DNA of 64,000 nt from an uncultured Thermodesulfobacteriota bacterium (GCA_964384945.1 CAYLMK010000001.1:125859-189858), one strand, 5' to 3'; positions 4,436 to 56,600 are shown, counted from the stretch's first letter. Notes: generated by a model from the sequence alone, not told the origin. Made by a program: numbers and translations.

Positions 4436-6129
4436 CAGATCAGGCCCTCCCCCTGCTCCGGTGCGTCGCCCGTTCGCTCGGGCTCGGGCAGCTCGAGACG
4501 ATCCTCTTTCGGCTTGAGAAAGATCCGCTCCCGGTTCAGGGCTTCCTTGTAAGAGCCCTCCTTGAGACGGATCTCGCCCGCCGGGTAGACGACGATGGCG
4601 GCCTCACCGCTCACCGGACAGACGGCCTCGCACATCCCGCAGCCGTTGCACCGGCTCTCGTCCACGAAGGGGCGCTTGTGGCCCTCCACGGGCCGGAAGA
4701 CGATCGCATTGTACGGGCAGGCCTCGTCGCAAAGGAGACAGAGCCGGTCCTTTGCCCAGGCCACGCACGTTTCCCGGAGAATCACCGCCGTCCCGACCTT
4801 GGCGTGTTGTCTTTCGATCAACGGCAGGTTGCGGATGGCTCCGGTCGGACAGATCCTGCCGCAGAGGTTGCACTGCTGCTCGCATCCCGCGAAGCGCATC
4901 CTGTGGACCGGCGTGCCCCATCGGACCAGGCCCGTCTCCATGCCCGAGGCCTGGAGGGTGTGGGTCACGCAGATCCGAAGGCAGGCACCGCAACGGACGC
5001 AGGTCGCCAGGAAGTCCTCTTCCGGCAGAGACCCCGGGGGGCGAAGCGTCCGATCGGTCTTCTTCAGGACGCGCGGGTCGAGCCTCGAAAGCGCGATCCC
5101 CATGCTCCCAAGCCCCAGGCCGAAGAAGAAGTGCCTCCTGGACACGCCTTCGGGTATCGGCCGGTGCGCGGCAGCAGACGGCCGGGGCCGCAACGAAAAG
5201 GAGATCGCCTCCACCGGGCAGACGGCCTGGCAGGACTTGCACTGGATGCAGGCGGACGGTCTTGTCTCGAACGGGTCCTCTCCGATCGCCCCCATAGGAC
5301 AAACGTCCTGGCACCTGCCGCAGGACGTACATGCGGCCGCGACGCGTCTCCGTGCGGGGGCCAGCCGCCCGAGAAGCCCCAGCAGGGCTCCCAGGGGACA
5401 GATGCTCCTGCACCAGAACCTCCGCGTGAGCAGGCCCGGCATGAGAACCGCCGAGAGCAGGATCAGGTTCCCGACGGCTGCCTGGAAACCGGGTTGCGCG
5501 TATGCATGGTACGCGAGACCGTACCAGCCCATTTTCTCCGCCAGCGGCCGGAGGAGGCCGACCGTCCCGTTCGCCGCCCAGATTCCAAGGGGGTAGAAGA
5601 CGACGGCAAGACTTCGCGTGAGCAGCCCGATCGGGTCCAGGACGAGGGGAAGGCCGTTCCGGAGGGCGAGCCCGATCAGCACACAGCCCAAAAGGACCCA
5701 TTGGAGCCCCGCCGAGGCGAGACGCCCGCCCCTGCGTTCCGGCCCGTTCTCGGGGGAGGAAGTCTGCCTCTGCGGGTCCGGTCGCCGCCCGGGAGTCCCG
5801 CGCCGCTGCCCTGCGCTGCCCAGAACATGATCCACCGCATCGATGCAAAACCCCAGCGGGCAGACATAAGCGCAGAAGATCCTGCCCCAGACCATTCCCG
5901 CGACGATCATCGCCAGTGCGAGCCAGATGAACTGCCGGGTCCCGGTTAGGGCGGCGAGAGAGTGCAGAGGGTCCAGGTCGAGAAAGAGCCGATACGGTAT
6001 CCAGGACCGCCAGGGGTGATGCATGGCGACAAAGAGGAAAAGGAAGACGGCGAAGCTCAGCGACTGAAGGAGCCACTTTTTCCGGCGGCTGCCTCCCGGG
6101 AGGCTTGCTTCCGAGGCGACCCGCTTCAC
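4435..6129 (-). CDS. membrane polyferredoxin, NapH/MauN-family 4Fe-4S binding protein
   Basis: Two CxxxCP motifs (CAYVCPLG, CRSICPLG) in a TM region, then at least six CxxCxxCxxxCP ferredoxin motifs. GTG start at 6129 overlaps the DUF362 stop (GTGA) and has GAAAGGTG as RBS. The track N-terminal 211 aa were rejected. Confidence 0.7.
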   Translation of the reverse strand: MKRVASEASLPGGSRRKKWLLQSLSFAVFLFLFVAMHHPWRSWIPYRLFLDLDPLHSLAALTGTRQFIWLALAMIVAGMVWGRIFCAYVCPLGFCIDAVDHVLGSAGQRRGTPGRRPDPQRQTSSPENGPERRGGRLASAGLQWVLLGCVLIGLALRNGLPLVLDPIGLLTRSLAVVFYPLGIWAANGTVGLLRPLAEKMGWYGLAYHAYAQPGFQAAVGNLILLSAVLMPGLLTRRFWCRSICPLGALLGLLGRLAPARRRVAAACTSCGRCQDVCPMGAIGEDPFETRPSACIQCKSCQAVCPVEAISFSLRPRPSAAAHRPIPEGVSRRHFFFGLGLGSMGIALSRLDPRVLKKTDRTLRPPGSLPEEDFLATCVRCGACLRICVTHTLQASGMETGLVRWGTPVHRMRFAGCEQQCNLCGRICPTGAIRNLPLIERQHAKVGTAVILRETCVAWAKDRLCLLCDEACPYNAIVFRPVEGHKRPFVDESRCNGCGMCEAVCPVSGEAAIVVYPAGEIRLKEGSYKEALNRERIFLKPKEDRLELPEPERTGDAPEQGEGLI

Positions 6130-9698: not shown

Positions 9699-9774
9699 GG
9701 GGATGTAGCTCAGCTGGGAGAGCACCACGTTCGCAACGTGGGGGTCGGCGGTTCGAATCCGCTCATCTCCACCA
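9699..9774 (+). tRNA. tRNA-Ala (anticodon CGC)
   Basis: GGGGATGTAGCTCAGCTGGGAGAGC...anticodon loop TTCGCAA...TTCGAATCC...ACCA. G3-U70 wobble in the acceptor stem (Ala identity element). Encoded CCA. Confidence 0.85.
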
Positions 9775-9965
9775 GAAACGACCGAAGATCCTGCCGCCAC
9801 GGGAGTCCTTGAGGCTCGTGCTGACCGGGCAGTCCATCCGATCCGTGCTTCCGCGCCAACGAGAATCGAGAAGCCGCCCCGCGTGATTTGCGCATGGGGC
9901 GCGGCAAGCACGGGGTCCGCACGCCACGGCGGCCCCCAAAGGAGAGGGTAGGCCGGCAAGAGGCC

Positions 9966-12461
9966 ATGATGGATACGCTCCCTCCAGACGTCCAGGTCTG
10001 CCTCCCCCTACCGATCGACGAACCGCTGACCTACCTCTGGCCCTCCTCCCTTCTTTCCCCTCCCGCCGTCGGTCTGCGGGTCCTGGTGCCCCTCGGCAAG
10101 AGGCGTGTTACCGGGTATGTGGTGGGAACGAAACCTGTACCGGTGCGTTCCGGCGCAGACTCCCCGAAGAGCTATCCGCTGAAACCGGTCGTGTCGGTGC
10201 TCGACGACGAGCCGCTTTTCGGCGACCGGGAACTCCGGTTCTTCGAATGGGTGTCCCGATACTACATCAGCCCGCTGGGCGATGTGCTGCGGGCAGCCCT
10301 GCCGGGCTCGATGAACGTGCGGAGCTGCCGGGCGGTACGAATCCTGCCGCAGGGCATGCTGGCCCTGAAACATGGCCTCTTCCTCACCGGGCAGGAGGCG
10401 GACATCCTGAGGCACCTGGAACGAGGCGGAAGATTGACGCTGCGGGCTCTCCGGCAGAAGGCGGCCCGGCCCGTCGACAGGGTCTTGGAAGGCCTGGAAG
10501 AGAAGGGGTTCCTCGAGCGGGTCCAGCTCTTCAAAGGGGGGCAGGCGAAGAGCGGAGCCGGCCGGGGCCTCCTCTGCCTGTCCGTTCCTCCCTCCCCGCC
10601 GCCGTTGGAGGAATGGATCTCCCTCCTGCCCAGGACCGAGGCTCGCATTGTGGAGCATCTGGCGCGCGAAGGGCCCTGTTCCGTTGCGGAGCTGCAAAGG
10701 GCCGTTCCGAGGTCCTCACAGGCCATGGACCGCCTTGCGGAGAAGGGCTTCATCGAGCGGATGCAAGGGCACGCGTCGGACGAGGCGGCGCCGGAGCCCT
10801 TCCGGCCGGTCCCTCCTCCGAGCCTGACGCCGGAGCAGGAAAGGGCCGTCTCCGCGATCGCCCCGTGCATCGACGGAAACTCCTTTCATTCCTTCCTCCT
10901 GCATGGAGTGACGAGCAGCGGCAAGACGGAGGTCTACCTGCAGGTCATCGACAGGGCCCTGAAGGCGGGCAAGGACGCTTTGGTGCTGGTTCCGGAGATC
11001 GGGCTCACGCCGCAGACCCTCCATCGGTTCTCTTCGCGTTTCGGAACCCGGGTTGCCGTGCTCCACTCGGGGCTTGTCGAAAGGGAGCGGCTGGACTTCT
11101 GGTGGAAGATACGGCGGGGACAGGCTCGCATCGCAATCGGCGCCCGTTCCGCCATCTTCGCCCCGTTCCGGAATCTGGGCGTGGTCGTGGTGGACGAGGA
11201 GCATGACCCTTCGTACAAGCAGCAGGATCGTATCCGTTACAACGCCAGGGACCTCGCGCTCGTTCGGGGTCAGCGGGAAAAGGCGGTCGTGATCCTGGGT
11301 TCGGCAACGCCCTCGCTCGAGTCCTACTACAACGCAAGACAGGGAAAGAGCGCGCTCCTCAAGCTGACCGAACGGATCGAAGCAAGGCCTCAACCCGAGG
11401 TCGTTCCGGTCGACATGCGCCGTCCATCCTCCCACGGGTCGCCCCGGAGCTCCCTTTCTCTCCCTCTTCAGGAGGCCCTGGTCCGCAACTGGGAGCAAGG
11501 AGGGAAGAGCCTGCTCTTTCTCAATCGACGCGGGTATGCGAACACCCTGGTCTGCAGGGATTGCGGCCACGCGGTCCGATGCCCTCACTGCAGCGTGAGC
11601 CTCACCCTGCACCGGGCGAAGAAGCGCATGTGTTGCCACTACTGCGACCACCAGCAGATTCCCCCTTCCCGGTGTCCCGCATGCCAGGGTCCGAACGTTC
11701 AACCCGTGGGCAAGGGCACGGAGCGGATTGAGGAGGAAATCGGGGCACTTCTTCCCGAGGCCCGGATCGGTCGAATGGACCGGGATACGACACACAGGAG
11801 AGGAGAACACGAGAGAATCCTCAAGCGCTTCAAGGGAGAGGAGTTGGATATCCTGGTGGGAACCCAGATGATCGCCAAAGGGCACGACATTCCGGCCGTC
11901 ACGCTGGTGGGCGTCGTCCTTGCGGATGTTTCCCTGGACCTCCCGGATTTTCGGGCGGCCGAGCGGACCCTGCAGCTCCTCATGCAGGTGGCCGGCAGGG
12001 CGGGACGGGGTCCCCGGCCGGGTCGGGTTTTGATCCAGAGCTATCATCCGGATCATCCCTGTATCGAATCCGTGCGTCTTCACGATTTCCAGCGATTCTA
12101 CGAACAAGAAATCGCAACGCGCAGAGAACTCGACTATCCCCCGTTCTGCAGGATGGTGAACCTTCGCATCACCGGAACCGGAGAGGAGGCGGCACGGGAA
12201 GCCGCCCGCCGGATGGGAGAGACCGCGCGTGCGATCCGAGAAGAAAGAGACCCCGTTTACAGGGACATCGAGATGCTCGGTCCGTCGCTCGCACCCCTTG
12301 CAAAGCTGCGGGATCGATTCCGGTTCCATTGCTTCCTGAAGGGAAAGGCACCGGGACCGCTTCATGACTTCACGCGGGAGATCATCGCCCGGCGCGGGAA
12401 GTTCCTTTCATCGAGAAGCCTGCATCTCGAAATCGACGTGGACCCGGTCCAGGTATTGTAG
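9966..12461 (+). CDS. priA: primosomal protein N' (replication restart helicase PriA)
   Basis: Helicase Walker A/B motifs (GVTSSGKTEVY, VVVDEEHD), Cys-rich zinc-binding region (CRDCGH...CPHCSVSL...CHYCDH...CPACQG) and C-terminal helicase domain. ATG at 9966 with AAGAGG RBS. Confidence 0.9.
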   Translation: MMDTLPPDVQVCLPLPIDEPLTYLWPSSLLSPPAVGLRVLVPLGKRRVTGYVVGTKPVPVRSGADSPKSYPLKPVVSVLDDEPLFGDRELRFFEWVSRYYISPLGDVLRAALPGSMNVRSCRAVRILPQGMLALKHGLFLTGQEADILRHLERGGRLTLRALRQKAARPVDRVLEGLEEKGFLERVQLFKGGQAKSGAGRGLLCLSVPPSPPPLEEWISLLPRTEARIVEHLAREGPCSVAELQRAVPRSSQAMDRLAEKGFIERMQGHASDEAAPEPFRPVPPPSLTPEQERAVSAIAPCIDGNSFHSFLLHGVTSSGKTEVYLQVIDRALKAGKDALVLVPEIGLTPQTLHRFSSRFGTRVAVLHSGLVERERLDFWWKIRRGQARIAIGARSAIFAPFRNLGVVVVDEEHDPSYKQQDRIRYNARDLALVRGQREKAVVILGSATPSLESYYNARQGKSALLKLTERIEARPQPEVVPVDMRRPSSHGSPRSSLSLPLQEALVRNWEQGGKSLLFLNRRGYANTLVCRDCGHAVRCPHCSVSLTLHRAKKRMCCHYCDHQQIPPSRCPACQGPNVQPVGKGTERIEEEIGALLPEARIGRMDRDTTHRRGEHERILKRFKGEELDILVGTQMIAKGHDIPAVTLVGVVLADVSLDLPDFRAAERTLQLLMQVAGRAGRGPRPGRVLIQSYHPDHPCIESVRLHDFQRFYEQEIATRRELDYPPFCRMVNLRITGTGEEAAREAARRMGETARAIREERDPVYRDIEMLGPSLAPLAKLRDRFRFHCFLKGKAPGPLHDFTREIIARRGKFLSSRSLHLEIDVDPVQVL

Positions 12462-12489: not shown

Positions 12490-12756
12490 CTAATCTTCGG
12501 AAACGAAGGAGAAAAGGGCAAACAGCAGAAGGAGAAAGCCGCTGAAGAAGTACAGGAAGAGGAAAGGGCTCGAGCCTTCGAAGTTCGAGAAGAACACATC
12601 TTTGTTGTAGATGAATCCCCAGTAAAAGGTAAAGCAGAAGGTTATGGACAGGCCGAGCTTGTACCTCGCAAAAAGGAGGCAGAACGACATCAGGGCGATG
12701 AACAGGGCCATGTGGACAACAGGTATCGTGAGCTGCATGTCTTGTAGGTGTTCCAT
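12490..12756 (-). CDS. small hydrophobic membrane protein (88 aa, 2-3 TM), hypothetical
   Basis: MEHLQDMQLTIPVVHMALFIALMSFCLLF.... Lower GC than its flanks. Sits directly downstream of a consensus sigma-54 promoter. Confidence 0.45.
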   Translation of the reverse strand: MEHLQDMQLTIPVVHMALFIALMSFCLLFARYKLGLSITFCFTFYWGFIYNKDVFFSNFEGSSPFLFLYFFSGFLLLLFALFSFVSED

Positions 12757-12794
12757 GGTTCGTCGATCTGCGCGGAAACGCGTGAGTCGAATCT

Positions 12795-12826
12795 GGGCCG
12801 GAGAAAAAGCAAACGTCGTGCCAAGG
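12795..12826 (-). promoter_or_regulatory. sigma-54 (RpoN) promoter: TTGGCACG-N4-TTGCT on the minus strand
   Basis: The reverse complement of 12809-12826 reads CCTTGGCACGACGTTTGC, a perfect -24 GG / -12 GC spacing. It lies about 40 nt upstream of the small membrane ORF start. Confidence 0.6.
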
Positions 12827-13139
12827 CCCCCCGCGCTCATGCCTCAACAGCCGGTCGCCCGGCTCCCTCGTCGGGCCAGGAGGCCCGTCTTCCCGGATCT
12901 GTTGACCCGATCGAGGGTTCTGTGAGAACATTTTTTTCCTGACGGTCGACCGGGAAGAGGCGCTGCGGCGAATCCCCTCCCCTTCCCGGCGGGAATCGGG
13001 ACGTATCGCGTTACGTTTTTCGACTCCTTGTTTCCATTTTGCTCTCCGCCGCGCTTCCGTTCCGATCTCCGGTGACGGGGCGTCCCTGCGATATCCCCTC
13101 GAATCGAAGGCTGAATGAAAGGGGGAGTTCGAGAAACGG

Positions 13140-14084
13140 ATGGGTGGACGAAATTGTATTCAAAGGCTTGCCGGAGTGACGGCCGCATTGCTGTGCATTT
13201 TCGCAGGCACACCCGCGCTCCGGGCCGGATCCAAGGCGGCCGTCGTGGTCCGTGACAGGCTCTGCGTTCCGGGCGAGGAGACCACCATCGAGGCAACCCT
13301 CTATCGAGGCGGTCTCTTCGGCCTGTTCACGGAAGGCGTTCAGGGGGAGCTGCTTTGCTTTTTCGATCCTCAGGGGAATCCCCTCGACAATCGGCTCACC
13401 GACCCGTCCGGCTCCGCCAGAACCCGCTTCACGGTCGGCGCTGCCGGCCGATATACGGTGACGGTGCGTCTGGCCGACAACCCGCGCTATTCGGCCGAGC
13501 CTGCGGCAGGGCTCCTGTTCGTCCGGGAGAGAGAGACGCCCCTGCTCTTCGTCATGGTCGAGTCCGGCCTCATGCCCCGGATCTCGGCGCCGTGGCCCGT
13601 GAGGGACTTGAAGGAGATTGCGGCCGAGCCCAGCTCGGCGGAGGCGCTCTCCGAGGTCGCCGGATGCCGCGTGCTGGTCTACCTCACCCAGACTCCCAGG
13701 CCGTCGGCAGAGCGCGTGCGGTCCTGGCTGACAGACAGAGGCTATCCGCCGGGCCCCCTCGCATTCCTGGATCCTCCTGCCTGGATCGCCATGCTGTCCG
13801 AAGCCCCCGCGATGAAGACGACGGTGCTCGAATCCTTCTGGAAGGAGCGGTCCGTGCCCGCCCACCTGCTGACCCGCGACCGCGGCATGGCGGAGGCGGC
13901 CGCAGGCAAGGGTTTCCACGTGCTGCTCCTGGCGCCGGAAGCGCCGGCCGGCGAGGCGTCCCCGGAGCGGGGAAGGCAGGAAGACGAGCGGCGGGAAAAG
14001 GGGAAGGGGGAAAACATCGAATCCTTTGCGGACTGGTCGGCGCTCCCTGTGATCTGCCGCTGCAAGCCAGGGAAGAGCGGCTAG
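13140..14084 (+). CDS. secreted hypothetical protein (signal peptide; N-terminal beta-sandwich-like region)
   Basis: N-terminal signal peptide MGGRNCIQRLAGVTAALLCIFAGTPALRAG. No recognizable catalytic motif. Confidence 0.45.
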   Translation: MGGRNCIQRLAGVTAALLCIFAGTPALRAGSKAAVVVRDRLCVPGEETTIEATLYRGGLFGLFTEGVQGELLCFFDPQGNPLDNRLTDPSGSARTRFTVGAAGRYTVTVRLADNPRYSAEPAAGLLFVRERETPLLFVMVESGLMPRISAPWPVRDLKEIAAEPSSAEALSEVAGCRVLVYLTQTPRPSAERVRSWLTDRGYPPGPLAFLDPPAWIAMLSEAPAMKTTVLESFWKERSVPAHLLTRDRGMAEAAAGKGFHVLLLAPEAPAGEASPERGRQEDERREKGKGENIESFADWSALPVICRCKPGKSG

Positions 14085-14154: not shown

Positions 14155-14601
14155 ATGAAGAGTCTGAAGGAGATCGTCGCGGACCCCGCCCGAGCACACG
14201 ATGTGATGGCCGACAGCCTGCGATATCTGGACGAAGAAATCGCCAGGCGTTCCGGGATCGGCGGCATGGCGATCAAGGGGGCTTACAAGGTCATCAAGAA
14301 CATCCAGGGCGGGAAGATGATCGAGAAGGCTGTCCGGGTGCTCATCCCCGAATTCATCGACAAGCTGGACCCGTACTACCTTCGATTCCAGCAGGAGGGA
14401 AAGGGACAGCCGTGGGAAGAGTTCCTCCGGCCCCACTACCCTGCCCTCGCAGACGAGCTCCTTGCCGTTACGGACCGAAAGATCCAGGGAACGGACAACC
14501 GTGCGGTTCGCGGGGCCTACGAAAAGCTCCGGCCCAGGGCGCAAAAGGAGGTCATGGCCTCGCTGCCTTCTCTGACCCGTTGGATGGAACGCTACATCTG
14601 A
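14155..14601 (+). CDS. hypothetical protein (148 aa)
   Basis: Clean ORF with ATG and coding-like GC3. No motif recognized. Confidence 0.45.
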   Translation: MKSLKEIVADPARAHDVMADSLRYLDEEIARRSGIGGMAIKGAYKVIKNIQGGKMIEKAVRVLIPEFIDKLDPYYLRFQQEGKGQPWEEFLRPHYPALADELLAVTDRKIQGTDNRAVRGAYEKLRPRAQKEVMASLPSLTRWMERYI

Positions 14602-15459: not shown

Positions 15460-15975
15460 CTAGGATCGGGAACTCGGGAGGGAAACCTTTTTGTGTTCGT
15501 CAAAGGCGTGCATATGTTTTCCGCCGTCCCAGAGCAGGAAGAAATCCGTAAGGACCTTGTTGTCCCTGTACATGTCCCTTGCCTGCAGCATCTTCGTAAT
15601 GATCCCGTCCAGCCGGTCGAAATCCTCCCTCATCTCCTGCAGGGTCACGTCCAGAACATGCTCGGTCTTCTGCATGGGATAGCCCTGTTCGATCATGTGC
15701 TGCGCCTCGACCAGAATGTTGGCCGCGTGCATCAGCGAAGCGACCTTGGAGCGCAACGAGATTTCATATTCGTTGGCAAGGATCTTCTCCGAGGGGTCGT
15801 CGCCCTTCTTGAACAGCTCGTCCCAGCAATACTTGGCGGCTCGCAGTTCCGCCGCAACGATCTGAAAGAGGCCTTCATACTCGATCTCGGACTTGATCAG
15901 GCTCTGAGAACGCAGGATACTTGCAAACATATCTTTGATAAAATGGTTCATGTTTTTCTTGACGTGGAGTTTCAT
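15460..15975 (-). CDS. hypothetical protein, His/Glu-rich (possibly hemerythrin-like metal-binding), low-GC
   Basis: Visibly lower GC than its neighbours. Motifs H..E / HAFDEH. Overlaps the unused 5' part of the dus track ORF. Confidence 0.4.
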   Translation of the reverse strand: MKLHVKKNMNHFIKDMFASILRSQSLIKSEIEYEGLFQIVAAELRAAKYCWDELFKKGDDPSEKILANEYEISLRSKVASLMHAANILVEAQHMIEQGYPMQKTEHVLDVTLQEMREDFDRLDGIITKMLQARDMYRDNKVLTDFFLLWDGGKHMHAFDEHKKVSLPSSRS

Positions 15976-16036
15976 GAGGCAGGCCCTGCCAGGAGTTCCC
16001 CTATACGGCGCGGAACCCATGCTCGGTTTCTTGCGG

Positions 16037-17143
16037 ATGCATGATTTTCATAATAGGAGACTTCTTTCAACCGTGTCAAGACAGGGAGGCCCTGCCGACG
16101 GGCAAAGCGGGCGTCGCCGGAAGGACGCAGCGTCCGAGGATCGCATCGGGGTGCTGAAGATCGGCTCCGTCCGGATCCCGAATCCCATTGCCCTGGCTCC
16201 CATGGCCGGATTCACGGACACCAGTGCGCGCAGGATCGCGAAGCGGTTCGGCGCCGGGCTGGTGTACAGCGAAATGATGAGCGCGGCCGGCCTGGTGAGA
16301 AGGCAGCCCGCGACGCTGGCCATGCTCGCCTTCCATGCGGAGGAGCAGCCCTACGGCGTGCAGATTTTCGGAGCCGAGCCGGCCGAGATGGCCGATGCGG
16401 CCCGGCTCGTCCAGGACCGGGGCGCCTCGATCGTGGACATCAACATGGGCTGCCCGGTCAAACGGGTTTGCCGGAACGGGGCGGGAGCGGCGCTGCTTCG
16501 CCGACCGAGGCAGGTGGAAGCGATCCTGCGGGAGGTCCGAAGGGCGGTGACCTGCCCTGTCACGGTCAAGATGCGCCTTGGCTGGGACACAACGGATCTC
16601 TCCGTCCTGGAAGTTTCCCGGATCGCGGAGGAGCAGGGGGTGGACGCGATCACGCTTCACCCTCGAACGCGGGCGCAAGGATATGCGGGAAGGGCCGACT
16701 GGTCCTGGGTTGCCCGCCTCAAGCAGGAGCGGGGGATTCCCATCATCGGAAACGGGGATCTGGTCGAACCGCAGGGATGCGCAGCCGCGCTGGCAAGCGG
16801 ATGCTGCGACGGCATTATGATCGGCCGCGCCGCAAGGGGTCATCCCTGGATTTTCTCGCAGACCCTGGAGGTCCTCTCGGGACGCGAGCCGGCCGAGCCT
16901 TCGCTCGAATTGCGCTACGGGGCGATCCTCCTGCACATGGAGTGGCTCTTCTCACAGTACGGAAGAGAACAGGGGCTGCGCAGAATGCGCTTTCTGCTCT
17001 TCCAGTACGTTCGGGGATTGCCCGGAGCGGCCCGGTTCCGCCGGGATCTCGTCCGGCAGCCGAGCGAGGAAGCCCTCAAAGCGCTTCTGCGAGCTCACTT
17101 CCTCGAAGGGGCCTCCGGCGGGGCGGACCTGCAGGAATCGTAG
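16037..17143 (+). CDS. dus: tRNA-dihydrouridine synthase (DusB-like)
   Basis: IALAPMAGFTD, DINMGCP, TVKMRLGWD and HPRTR motifs of Dus TIM-barrel flavoenzymes. Start uncertain: ATG 16037, or GTG 16073 after an AGGAGA RBS. Confidence 0.8.
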   Translation: MHDFHNRRLLSTVSRQGGPADGQSGRRRKDAASEDRIGVLKIGSVRIPNPIALAPMAGFTDTSARRIAKRFGAGLVYSEMMSAAGLVRRQPATLAMLAFHAEEQPYGVQIFGAEPAEMADAARLVQDRGASIVDINMGCPVKRVCRNGAGAALLRRPRQVEAILREVRRAVTCPVTVKMRLGWDTTDLSVLEVSRIAEEQGVDAITLHPRTRAQGYAGRADWSWVARLKQERGIPIIGNGDLVEPQGCAAALASGCCDGIMIGRAARGHPWIFSQTLEVLSGREPAEPSLELRYGAILLHMEWLFSQYGREQGLRRMRFLLFQYVRGLPGAARFRRDLVRQPSEEALKALLRAHFLEGASGGADLQES

Positions 17144-23623: not shown

Positions 23624-25732
23624 CTAAAGCAGCGGAGCGATCACCAGGGAGACAACGGACATCAGCTTGATCAGGATGTTCATCGCGGGCCCGGAGGTAT
23701 CCTTGAAAGGATCGCCCACGGTGTCGCCGATCACCGCCGCTTTGTGATTGGCGCTGCCCTTGCCTCCCAGGTTTCCCTTCTCGATGTACTTCTTCGCGTT
23801 GTCCCATGCGCCGCCGCCGTTGGCCATCATGAGCGCCAGGAGCACGCCCGAGGCCGTCGCGCCCGCCAGGGCGCCTGCCAACGCCACAGGTCCCATCCAG
23901 AAGCCGACAACCGGCGGCGTGATGACGGCGACCAGGCCGGGCACGATCATCCTCTTGAGAGCGCCCTTGGTCGCAATATCCACGCACCGGGCCGGATCCG
24001 GCTTCCCGGTGCCCTCCAGCAGCCCTGGAATCTCCTTGAACTGCCGGCGGATCTCGTTGACCATGTCAAAGGCCGCGGAGCCCACGGCCAGCATCGTCCG
24101 GCTGGCGATAAGGAAGGGGATGAAGGCGCCGATGAACAGTCCGATCACCGCCTGCGGGCTGGTCAGGTTGACCACGAGCACTTCGAGAAAATCGGTCGCC
24201 GGGTCGTCCACATTGACCGCCTGCGTATAGGCGGAAAACAGGGCGAGCGCCGTCAAGGCAGCGCTCCCGATCGCAAAGCCCTTGCCGATCGCGGCCGTCG
24301 TGTTCCCCAAAGCATCGAGCCCGTCCGTGATCTGCCGGGTCTCGGGGCCCAACTCGGCCATCTCCGAGATGCCGCCCGCGTTGTCCGCGATCGGCCCGTA
24401 GGAATCCACGCTCATCGTGATGCCCACGGTGGCCAGCATGCCCACGGCAGCGATCCCGATCCCGTAAAGCCCCGCATAGTGGTTGGAGATGAAGATGGCC
24501 AGACAGATGAAGATCACGGGCGCCACCACGCTTTCCATGCCCACGGCCAGTCCCTGAATGATCACCGTGGCGGGGCCGGTCTCCGAGGCCTTTGCGATGT
24601 CCCGCACGGGCTTCCCGGCGGTGTAGTACTCCGTGATCAGCCCGATCACCACGCCGGCCAAACAGCCGAGCGTCACGGCCAGCCAGACGTTCGCCCGGCC
24701 CGCGAGGTCCGCCATGCCAGCCGCAGCGGCCCCTTCGCGCAACAGGCCGTTCACCCCGAACAGCCAGATCCAGATACCGGAGCCCACGATGAAGAGCCCC
24801 GCCGCGATGAACATGGAGTACCGCAGCGCGGCAGCCGGGCTGTACTTCTTCAGCCAGTCGATGCTCCGGATCCCAACGAACGAACTGAGCAACCCGATGG
24901 CCACCATGAAGATGGGAAGGCTCATGAAATAGAAGGCGTTCTCCCCCACCGTGGCCGTCCAGGTCGCGCCGATCGCGATCGTAGCGACGACCGAGCCCAC
25001 GTAGGACTCGAAGATGTCGGCGCCCATTCCAGCGGTGTCCCCGACACAGTCCCCCACGTTGTCCGCGATCACGCCCGGGTTTCTGGGGTCATCCTCCGGG
25101 ATCCCGGCCTCCACCTTGCCCACCAGGTCCGCGCCCACGTCGGCCGCCTTGGTGTAGATCCCGCCCCCGACACGGGCAAAGAGCGCGATCGAGCTCGCGC
25201 CCATGGCGAATCCATTGATATCCTGCGTCTGGAAAAACCCGAACCAGCGGGAAAACAGGTAAAGAATCGTCACCCCCAGCATCCCCAGGCTGGCCACCGT
25301 CAGGCCCATCACGGCCCCACCGTTAAAGGCCACCTCCAGGGCGCTGCCCTGCCCCTCCTGGTTGGCCATCCAGGAGGTCCGCACGTTGGCCTTGGTCGCA
25401 GCCTGCATGCCCACAAAGCCGGCCGTCATGGAGCAGCCCGCGCCCAGCAGGAAGCACACTGCGGTCAGAAAGGAGATCTTCCACGCCAGGAGCAGGAACA
25501 CGATCGCGATGAAGGCGCAAAGGTAGGTATACTCCGTCTTCAGGAAGGCCATGGCGCCCGTGTGGATCAGCTCCGCGATCTCCCGCATCTTGTCCGTGCC
25601 CGAATCCTTCGCCTCGATATCGCCGAAAATCTTGCGCGCCGCACCGATGCCGACAACTCCCACGGCCAACACCCCCAGCAGCCCGACCCCGTACATGCCC
25701 CAGGTTCGAAAGACCTCTACAATCGTCTCCAT
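23624..25732 (-). CDS. hppA: membrane-bound proton-translocating pyrophosphatase (H+-PPase)
   Basis: 702 aa, about 16 TM helices. Conserved GGG/DNVGD, DxxGNTTAA and GDTxGDPxK motifs. Confidence 0.95.
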
Positions 25733-55490: not shown

Positions 55491-56600
55491 ATGGCGGGAA
55501 ACACCTTCGGAAGGGTCTTCCGGGTCACCACCTGGGGCGAGTCCCACGGGTGGGCCATCGGCACGGTGGTGGACGGCTGTCCGCCCGGGCTGCCTCTGGA
55601 CGAAACGACGATCCAGAAGGACCTGGACCGAAGGAAGCCGGGCCAGAGCGATCTGACCACGGCCCGGGAGGAAAGGGACAGAGTGGAGATCCTCTCCGGG
55701 GTCTTCGAGGGAAAGACCTTGGGCACACCGATCTGTCTCCTCATCCGAAACCAGGGGCAGCAATCCGAACGCTACGACCACCTCCGGGAGGTCTTTCGTC
55801 CGGGGCACGCGGAGGCGACCTACTACCAGAAATACGGCCTCTACGATCACCGCGGAGGGGGCCGCGCCTCGGCCCGGGAGACGGCCGCCCGCGTGGCCGC
55901 CGGGGCGGTCGCCAAGCGGCTCCTTGAGGAACAGGGGATCGAGGTGGTGGGTTATACGCGCCGGGTCGGGTCGATCGAGGCCGAGACATTCGATTTCCGG
56001 CAGATCGAGAAGAATCCGGTTAGGTGCCCCGACCCCGTGCAGGCGGGGAAAATGGCGGAACTGATCCGGCGGGTTCGCGAAGAAGGCGACTCCATCGGCG
56101 GCCTCGTCGAGGTGGTCGCCCGGGGTGTACCCGCCGGCCTGGGCGAGCCGGTCTTCGACAAGATGGACGCAGACCTGGCAAAGGCCCTGATGAGCATCAA
56201 TGCGATCAAGGGGGTCGAGATCGGCGCGGGCTTCGGCGTGGCCGAAAGACGGGGCTCCGGGAACAACGACGCCTGGTTCTTCGAGGGCGGAAGGCTGCGC
56301 ACCCGGACCAACCATGCAGGCGGCGTCATCGGCGGGATCACGACGGGCGAGGAGCTGCTCGTACGAATCGCGGTCAAGCCTCCCTCGACCATCGGCATCC
56401 CGCAGCAGACCGTGGACCGCAAGGGAAGAAGCGTAACCATGACCCCGGGCGATGCCGAGTCAAAAAGACGGCACGATCCTTGCATATGCCCCAGGGTGGT
56501 TCCAGTCGCGGAGGCCATGGTCGCTATCGTCCTGGCGGATCACCTCCTGCGCCACCGCGGCATGAGGGGATCCGATTTCGACCCACGGAAAGCCCCCTAG
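55491..56600 (+). CDS. aroC: chorismate synthase
   Basis: N-terminal [15 protein letters not shown] and the conserved signature regions of AroC. Confidence 0.95.

Follow-up and report, generated by a model that had tools for sequence, protein, structure and literature searches.

A small membrane protein gene with a conserved sigma-54 promoter and a candidate distal activator site in an uncultured Thermodesulfobacteriota bacterium

The stretch of DNA analysed here (64,000 nucleotides from an uncultured Thermodesulfobacteriota bacterium, GCA_964384945.1 CAYLMK010000001.1:125859-189858; hereafter the window) carries on its minus strand what we read as a stand-alone gene for an 88-residue membrane protein, served by a conserved sigma-54 (RpoN) promoter and controlled by a remote activator, for which a tandem repeat further upstream, termed element A, is the best candidate site. 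We place the probability of this reading at about 0.7. New here are an uncharacterised protein family, with an estimate of its size, sigma-54 control that is limited to a single subfamily, and a conserved upstream module formed of a tandem repeat and a putative divergent promoter. The sequence facts given in the initial annotation of this region were all recovered, with coordinates that were off by 1-2 nt at most.

The open reading frame encodes a predicted three-helix membrane protein

The open reading frame (ORF) runs from an ATG at 12756 to a stop at 12490 on the minus strand (12490..12756; 88 codons) and, as first described, specifies a hydrophobic mini-protein, which starts MEHLQDMQLTIPVVHM, ends SFVSED and has three predicted transmembrane (TM) helices. 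Among 5.8 billion proteins searched, 49 homologs were identified (57-90% identity), nearly all of them 82-88 aa in length, in which the conserved stretch extends from MExxxxMELTIP to a C-terminal (S/A)E(D/E). We compared the window ORF by codon position with eight homologous coding sequences from related loci, which are designated here by L numbers. Against L015 there were 5, 1 and 30 differences at codon positions 1, 2 and 3, respectively, with 27 synonymous and 6 non-synonymous codon changes; across the seven close relatives these changes numbered 27-32 and 6-12, respectively, and in the more distant L006 they numbered 28 and 25. Judged by these comparisons the 88-codon ORF is a real gene under purifying selection, since the differences fall at codon position 3 and 49 homologs exist. 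A lack of conservation had been named initially as a finding that would refute the proposal, and conservation is what the homologs and the third-position bias display.

The lower GC content noted over the ORF was also observed (~0.49 versus ~0.63 around it). Because the GC3 of the ORF is 0.74, this reflects a composition rich in Phe, Leu, Ile and Tyr, and a foreign origin or a dubious ORF, as might be read from the low GC, was ruled out. A longer ORF of 116 aa, beginning at an ATG at 12840, was likewise rejected; the additional 84 nt upstream have no codon-phase bias and contain stop codons in homologs, so this extension is taken to be non-coding.

A profile search of 1.84 billion cluster representatives gave a family of 193 clusters at E<=0.001, where clusters are defined at 50% identity and 193 is a lower bound on the family size. 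All 193 are ~90 aa and have a common three-helix layout, consisting of an acidic N-terminus, helix 1, a basic R/K-x-K-L loop, helix 2 carrying F-x-F-Y-W-G-F/Y, a polar loop and helix 3. In the AlphaFold2 model of the window protein, which is of moderate confidence (pLDDT 67), the helices span residues 13-28, 33-50 and 64-85. Neither the window protein nor 38 diverse relatives matched a Pfam or NCBIfam family above threshold, no PDB sequence was matched at E<=10, and the source names of family members are all 'hypothetical protein'. The model and these searches point to an inner-membrane protein with three TM helices, belonging to a family that has no curated annotation and is widespread in Desulfobacterota-like anaerobes. 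When the positive-inside rule is applied to the RYK loop between helices 1 and 2, the predicted topology is probably N-out and C-in.

A unique consensus sigma-54 promoter precedes the gene

Upstream of the ORF lies the -24/-12 element TGGCACG-ACGT-TTGCT (TGGCACGACGTTTGCT; 12808..12823, minus strand), around which the minus strand reads ccTTGGCACGACGTTTGCTttttc. The exact match to the RpoN consensus that had been claimed here held up. With 12/12 specified positions, TGGCACGACGTTTGCT is the only exact TGGCACG-N4-TTGCW in the window, and the exact consensus appeared in none of 100 dinucleotide-preserving shuffles (0/100), with 0 expected by chance. A looser pattern allowing one mismatch gave two further sites in the window, which is the chance frequency, and both lie inside coding sequence (23749-23763 and 56469-56483, plus strand), the latter in a chorismate-synthase-like ..GRHDPC.. 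frame. No other credible sigma-54 promoter was found in the 64 kb, and a promoter scan found no sigma-70-type promoter for the ORF.

The position of the -12 GC (12809-12810) puts the inferred start site near 12797 on the minus strand, and standard sigma-54 geometry predicts a 5' leader of ~42 nt (12757..12798) between this site and the ATG. The gene is monocistronic in the window and convergent with priA (9888-12461, plus strand; 857 aa when read from the first TTG; MarR-like winged-helix match at residues 247-294), which is itself preceded by a tRNA gene (9699-9771, plus strand). The stops of priA and the small ORF are 28 nt apart and no intrinsic terminator was found after the small ORF, so the two transcripts may overlap.

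Sigma-54 holoenzyme forms a closed complex at -24/-12 elements, the opening of which strictly needs an AAA+ enhancer-binding protein and ATP (PMC4641369). A scan of all six frames of the window agreed with the initial annotation in finding no enhancer-binding protein with a GAFTGA-like motif, nor was there a Walker A motif of the enhancer-binding-protein type (GESGTGK-like). Furthermore, no rpoN or enhancer-binding protein gene was detected across the window and 36 related loci (203 kb), and we therefore place the activator elsewhere in the genome.

Sigma-54 control is confined to one subfamily

GG-N10-GC sites that closely match the consensus were sought in the sequence preceding each start codon, over a distance of at most 600 nt. 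Among subfamily loci a -24/-12 element was present 60-122 nt before the ATG in 28/29 (26/27 non-identical sequences), in the form TGG(C/T)A(C/T)G-N4-TTGC(T/A), where the background for the same criterion was 23 matches in 930 kb of control sequence, equivalent to 0.0096 per 390 nt. The N4 spacer and the flanks of the element vary between lineages, which argues for selection on the element itself and not mere sequence identity. Promoter and ORF are therefore conserved together in related loci, in keeping with the original proposal of a sigma-54 promoter that serves a small hydrophobic membrane protein.

The wider family was represented by 67 loci from a genome-collection scan, with hosts that include Desulfobacterales, Syntrophales, Desulfatibacillum alkenivorans, Smithella, and Nitrospirota and Binatia MAGs; a genome-collection scan with close alignment found nothing. 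The sigma-54 element occurred in 0/67 of these loci, which are mostly from Desulfobacterota, and when five of their upstream regions were inspected by eye, two (L055 and L091) had sigma-70-type promoters. Given its presence in 28/29 subfamily loci and 0/67 wider-family loci, sigma-54 control is, as far as upstream sequences can tell, a derived trait of the window's subfamily. Neighbouring genes gave no functional hint in the wider family, where none recurs in more than 8/67 loci, and they vary in the subfamily also (priA, FGGY kinase, aldehyde:ferredoxin oxidoreductase (AFOR), ABC ATPase, Rce1-like).

The upstream region contains a tandem repeat and a putative divergent promoter

An enhancer role had been suggested for a 10-bp palindrome, CGGTCGACCG (12943..12952, no strand). 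The palindrome is present at this position, but it is probably without function. Perfect 10-bp palindromes number 97 in the window versus ~90 in shuffles, or ~1 per 660 nt, and at this chance rate a single one in the 384-nt intergenic region is no surprise. In the aligned upstream regions it is found in the window only, with L015 keeping just the 6-bp core GTCGAC, and we rejected it as an enhancer on account of its chance frequency and its lack of conservation with the promoter.

Besides the -24/-12 element, the most conserved upstream blocks were element A and a TTGACC sequence on the opposite strand. Element A (about 13007..13041, minus strand) is a candidate distal enhancer composed of two direct repeats, CAAAATGGAAAC ... 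GAAAAACGTAAC, with the consensus GAAAAnnG(A/T)AACC and a period of 20-22 bp. A sequence-only model built from 20 copies gave one match in the window (27.9 bits, E 1.6e-07; next best 8.7 bits), and there were no further credible copies in the 64 kb. One copy each was detected in 23/27 subfamily loci, the four without a match being L011, L035 and two contigs too short to contain the element, and none was detected in 465 kb of wider-family loci (0/67). The sigma-54 promoter is present in L011 and element A is missing. The sigma-54 element is absent from L035, a distant homolog at 45% identity; at ~430-512 of this locus a single GAATACGTAACCCGATACG is located ~75 nt before the start, and resembles one element A unit with a window-type flank.

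The TTGACC sequence (12902-12907) is part of a block, TTGACC-N13-TGTG-A-GAACAT (12902..12931, plus strand), that points away from the ORF towards 13140. TTGACC is invariant in 16/16 unique loci, TGTG and the hexamer positions A2/A5/T6 (nAnnAT) are conserved across the same 16, and the spacer is a constant 18 nt, its sequence itself not being conserved. From this pattern we infer a sigma-70-type promoter with an extended -10, divergent from the ORF; its -10 hexamer, GAACAT (12926-12931), matches the consensus at 3/6 positions only, which is why a simple consensus scan did not report it. An IHF site in the AGGTCAA block was also considered and discarded, with no WATCAANNNNTTR match by eye.

The gene on the divergent side differs between loci. 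In the window clade and L011 its product is a 314-aa secreted protein. L009, L022, L026, L029 and L033 instead have a gene for a secreted 'DPHIPDGQ' protein, with a ribosome-binding site and ATG ~60 nt downstream of the putative divergent promoter. The gene codes for AFOR in L006 and for an ABC ATPase or Rce1-like protein in the clades of L004 and L012. The 314-aa signal-peptide protein of the window (13140-14084, plus strand) has no family match and weak Ig-like matches only. Its gene is paired with a DUF6918 gene (14155-14601, plus strand), as it is in L001, and in L006 with AFOR inserted.

GTAAC of element A and GGTCAA (TTGACC on the other strand) are spaced 105-111 bp apart in 16/16 unique loci, with hardly any conservation of the sequence between them. 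From element A to -24 the distance is 151-214 bp, with a mode of 197, and in one locus, L018, it is 427 bp because an insertion of ~230 nt of repetitive DNA has moved the module away from the promoter; this extra DNA (~470-700 of L018) carries GGCGAAAGGGCAAAGGGCAAAGG-type repeats, and the internal spacing of the module is intact. Element A is retained in five loci in which the divergent promoter has decayed (L012, L027, L028, L032 and L036), at 182-197 bp from -24 in 4/5 and at 151 bp in L028, and it is kept in place across at least four unrelated divergent gene families.

In the five loci with the 'DPHIPDGQ' protein, element A falls inside signal-peptide codons (..R-V-T-F-F/L..) of the divergent gene; in L009, for example, the divergent coding sequence spans 4843-5718 (minus strand) and element A 5667-5706. 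This DNA may serve two uses, or it may be a relic that has been retained for a function at the DNA level. In the window, element A is non-coding, with 100 nt between it and the start at 13140, and the corresponding DNA is also non-coding in the L001, L006, L004 and L012 clades, which have a different divergent gene. The idea that a conserved small ORF spans element A in this clade was rejected, as the window, L001 and L015 have lost its ATG and the frames differ between loci. Analysis of the upstream module with RNAalifold gave an energy of ~0 on both strands, no better than column shuffles, and nothing relevant was found for it in Rfam.

Alternative readings of the upstream elements

Our preferred assignment for element A, held tentatively and at a little under even odds, is that of an enhancer for the sigma-54 promoter, because element A tracks this promoter and the small ORF and not any divergent gene. 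Most known sites for enhancer-binding proteins are inverted repeats whereas element A is a direct repeat, and this form, together with the rigid spacing to the divergent promoter and the absence from L011, is why we hold the assignment with caution. Since its spacing is rigid to the divergent promoter and looser to the sigma-54 promoter, element A could instead belong to the divergent unit. On that reading, which we find doubtful but of some weight, element A and the TTGACC/TGTG block would both serve the divergent unit, as promoter plus leader or operator, and the true sigma-54 enhancer would be a poorly conserved site or the TTGCACAGAA...AGGTCAA block, which occupies the classical enhancer position 45-100 bp upstream of -24. 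Apart from the 105-111 bp spacing, it is favoured by the position of element A, which falls in the 5' untranslated region or the signal peptide of the divergent gene, whatever that gene is, and by L011, in which element A is missing and the TTGACC block and the sigma-54 promoter are both kept. Most enhancer sites in Desulfovibrio also lie within 100 nt of the promoter, with some >300 bp away (PMC4641369), so the ~200-bp distance of element A is acceptable but not typical. However, element A is unmoved across four unrelated divergent gene families and survives decay of the divergent promoter at largely unchanged distances from -24 (182-197 bp in 4/5 loci, 151 bp in L028), neither strand has a conserved RNA structure, and the TTGACC/AGGTCAA block has no dyad symmetry and fits a -35/extended -10 pattern.

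Element A might also be viewed as an ECF sigma promoter (TGAAAC-N13-16-CGTAAC) that acts in tandem with the sigma-54 promoter and yields an ORF transcript with a long leader, as its halves are oriented towards the ORF and bear what we take to be a likeness to the AAC (-35) and CGT (-10) motifs. This is highly improbable, given that both halves are one 12-nt unit, GAAAAnnGnAAC, in direct repeat and not two different elements, that the spacer varies over 13-16 nt and that CGT is often TGT. We give very little credence to the idea that the sigma-54 match is fortuitous or non-productive, with the ORF expressed from another promoter or not at all. Many sigma-54 binding sites of E. coli are reported to be intragenic or orphan (PMC4591121), and two near-matches lie inside genes of the window, but the site upstream of the ORF matches the consensus at 12/12 positions, is intergenic and correctly oriented, and is conserved where its surroundings have diverged, and no sigma-70-type promoter was found that could take its place. 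A PspG-like envelope-stress effector, with the sigma-54 promoter activated from the palindrome ~120 nt upstream, is improbable as well. The palindrome does lie at a typical enhancer distance, and E. coli pspG, too, encodes a small membrane protein and has a dedicated sigma-54 promoter, ~50 nt upstream of its ATG (PMC3068692, PMC2763126). None-the-less, the palindrome is at chance frequency and not conserved, no PspF candidate was found in the window or related loci, the five nearest ORFs include no psp gene in a Pfam scan, and homology to PspG fails: among 38 family members there was no Pfam PspG match at E<=1, and hhalign of the family profile with E. coli PspG gave a probability of 0.4%. We therefore reject 'PspG-like' as a statement of family membership, and a role in envelope stress would be speculative.

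Comparison with known sigma-54 systems

E. coli pspG, which belongs to the phage-shock response, is monocistronic and encodes an 80-aa inner-membrane effector from its own PspF-dependent sigma-54 promoter (PMC3068692, PMC2763126), which reads TGGCATGATTCTTGT in the E. coli sequence. In both systems a small multi-helix membrane protein (80-88 aa) is encoded by a monocistronic gene, the activator gene is placed elsewhere (PMC3068692), and a dedicated -24/-12 promoter precedes the start codon by some 40-50 nt. Unlike pspG, the window gene has no psp gene among its five nearest ORFs, its product has no sequence or profile similarity to PspG, and its upstream architecture is a tandem direct repeat plus a divergent sigma-70-like promoter. 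By analogy it is possible that the protein works as PspG does, as a conditionally expressed small membrane protein. A Dus-family gene (15935-17143, plus strand) lies ~3 kb from the small ORF, beyond three genes, and E. coli pspG is directly downstream of dusA (L104:11670-13083); the proximity of a Dus-family gene to both is probably a coincidence.

The enhancer-dependent promoters glnAp2 and Pu, activated by NtrC and XylR, respectively, have distal activator sites and an intervening element, and at glnA a sigma-70 promoter is also located in the enhancer region. The arrangement described here would be analogous, in that a conserved multi-site element lies 150-250 bp upstream of a -24/-12 promoter and a further conserved element is found between the two. 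Unlike these systems, the repeats are direct and not inverted, and the intervening element resembles a divergent promoter and not an IHF site, with no WATCAANNNNTTR seen by eye. In Desulfovibrio and Geobacter, sigma-54 regulons involve many enhancer-binding proteins and many hypothetical targets (PMC4641369). A sigma-54 promoter before a hypothetical membrane protein is in keeping with these regulons, and the phylum-level background is likely the same, the wider family being found in Desulfobacterales, Syntrophales and similar MAGs; the main text of PMC4641369 contains no GTAAC, GAAAC or direct-repeat motif resembling element A, and the gene family described here has no annotation in the databases searched.

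Proposed mechanism and significance

In the mechanism that we propose, sigma-54 RNA polymerase would sit as a closed complex on TGGCAC-N5-TTGC, and an enhancer-binding ATPase from elsewhere in the genome would bind upstream, most likely at element A and not at the palindrome, and loop to the promoter over the region that contains the divergent promoter. Transcription from ~12797 would then yield the ~42-nt leader followed by the coding sequence of the 88-aa protein, which would insert into the membrane. The most plausible reading of its role is that of a membrane effector or regulator with conditional, stress- or signal-dependent expression.

A bolder reading, which we think rather unlikely as a whole, is that the tandem-repeat enhancer, the divergent sigma-70 promoter, the sigma-54 promoter and the gene for the 88-aa protein, in that order, make up a portable module of ~560 bp, in which one branch of a sigma-70-driven family would have switched promoter class, with a dual-use enhancer, a new conditional effector and an activator that reads direct repeats. 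If this were true, the enhancer would in some lineages double as signal-peptide codons of the divergent gene, and stay non-coding where that gene has been replaced.

Taken alone, the gene is one more uncharacterised sigma-54 target and does not represent a new principle. Small membrane proteins are, however, routinely missed or dismissed in annotation, and by the comparative evidence this one is demonstrably real. Its unusually clean regulatory signature makes the locus experimentally tractable, and the conserved tandem repeat is a possible bait for the cognate activator in little-studied anaerobic sediment and hot-spring bacteria. Likewise, with sigma-54 control in one subfamily and absent from the wider family, these loci would offer a tidy natural example of a switch in promoter class.
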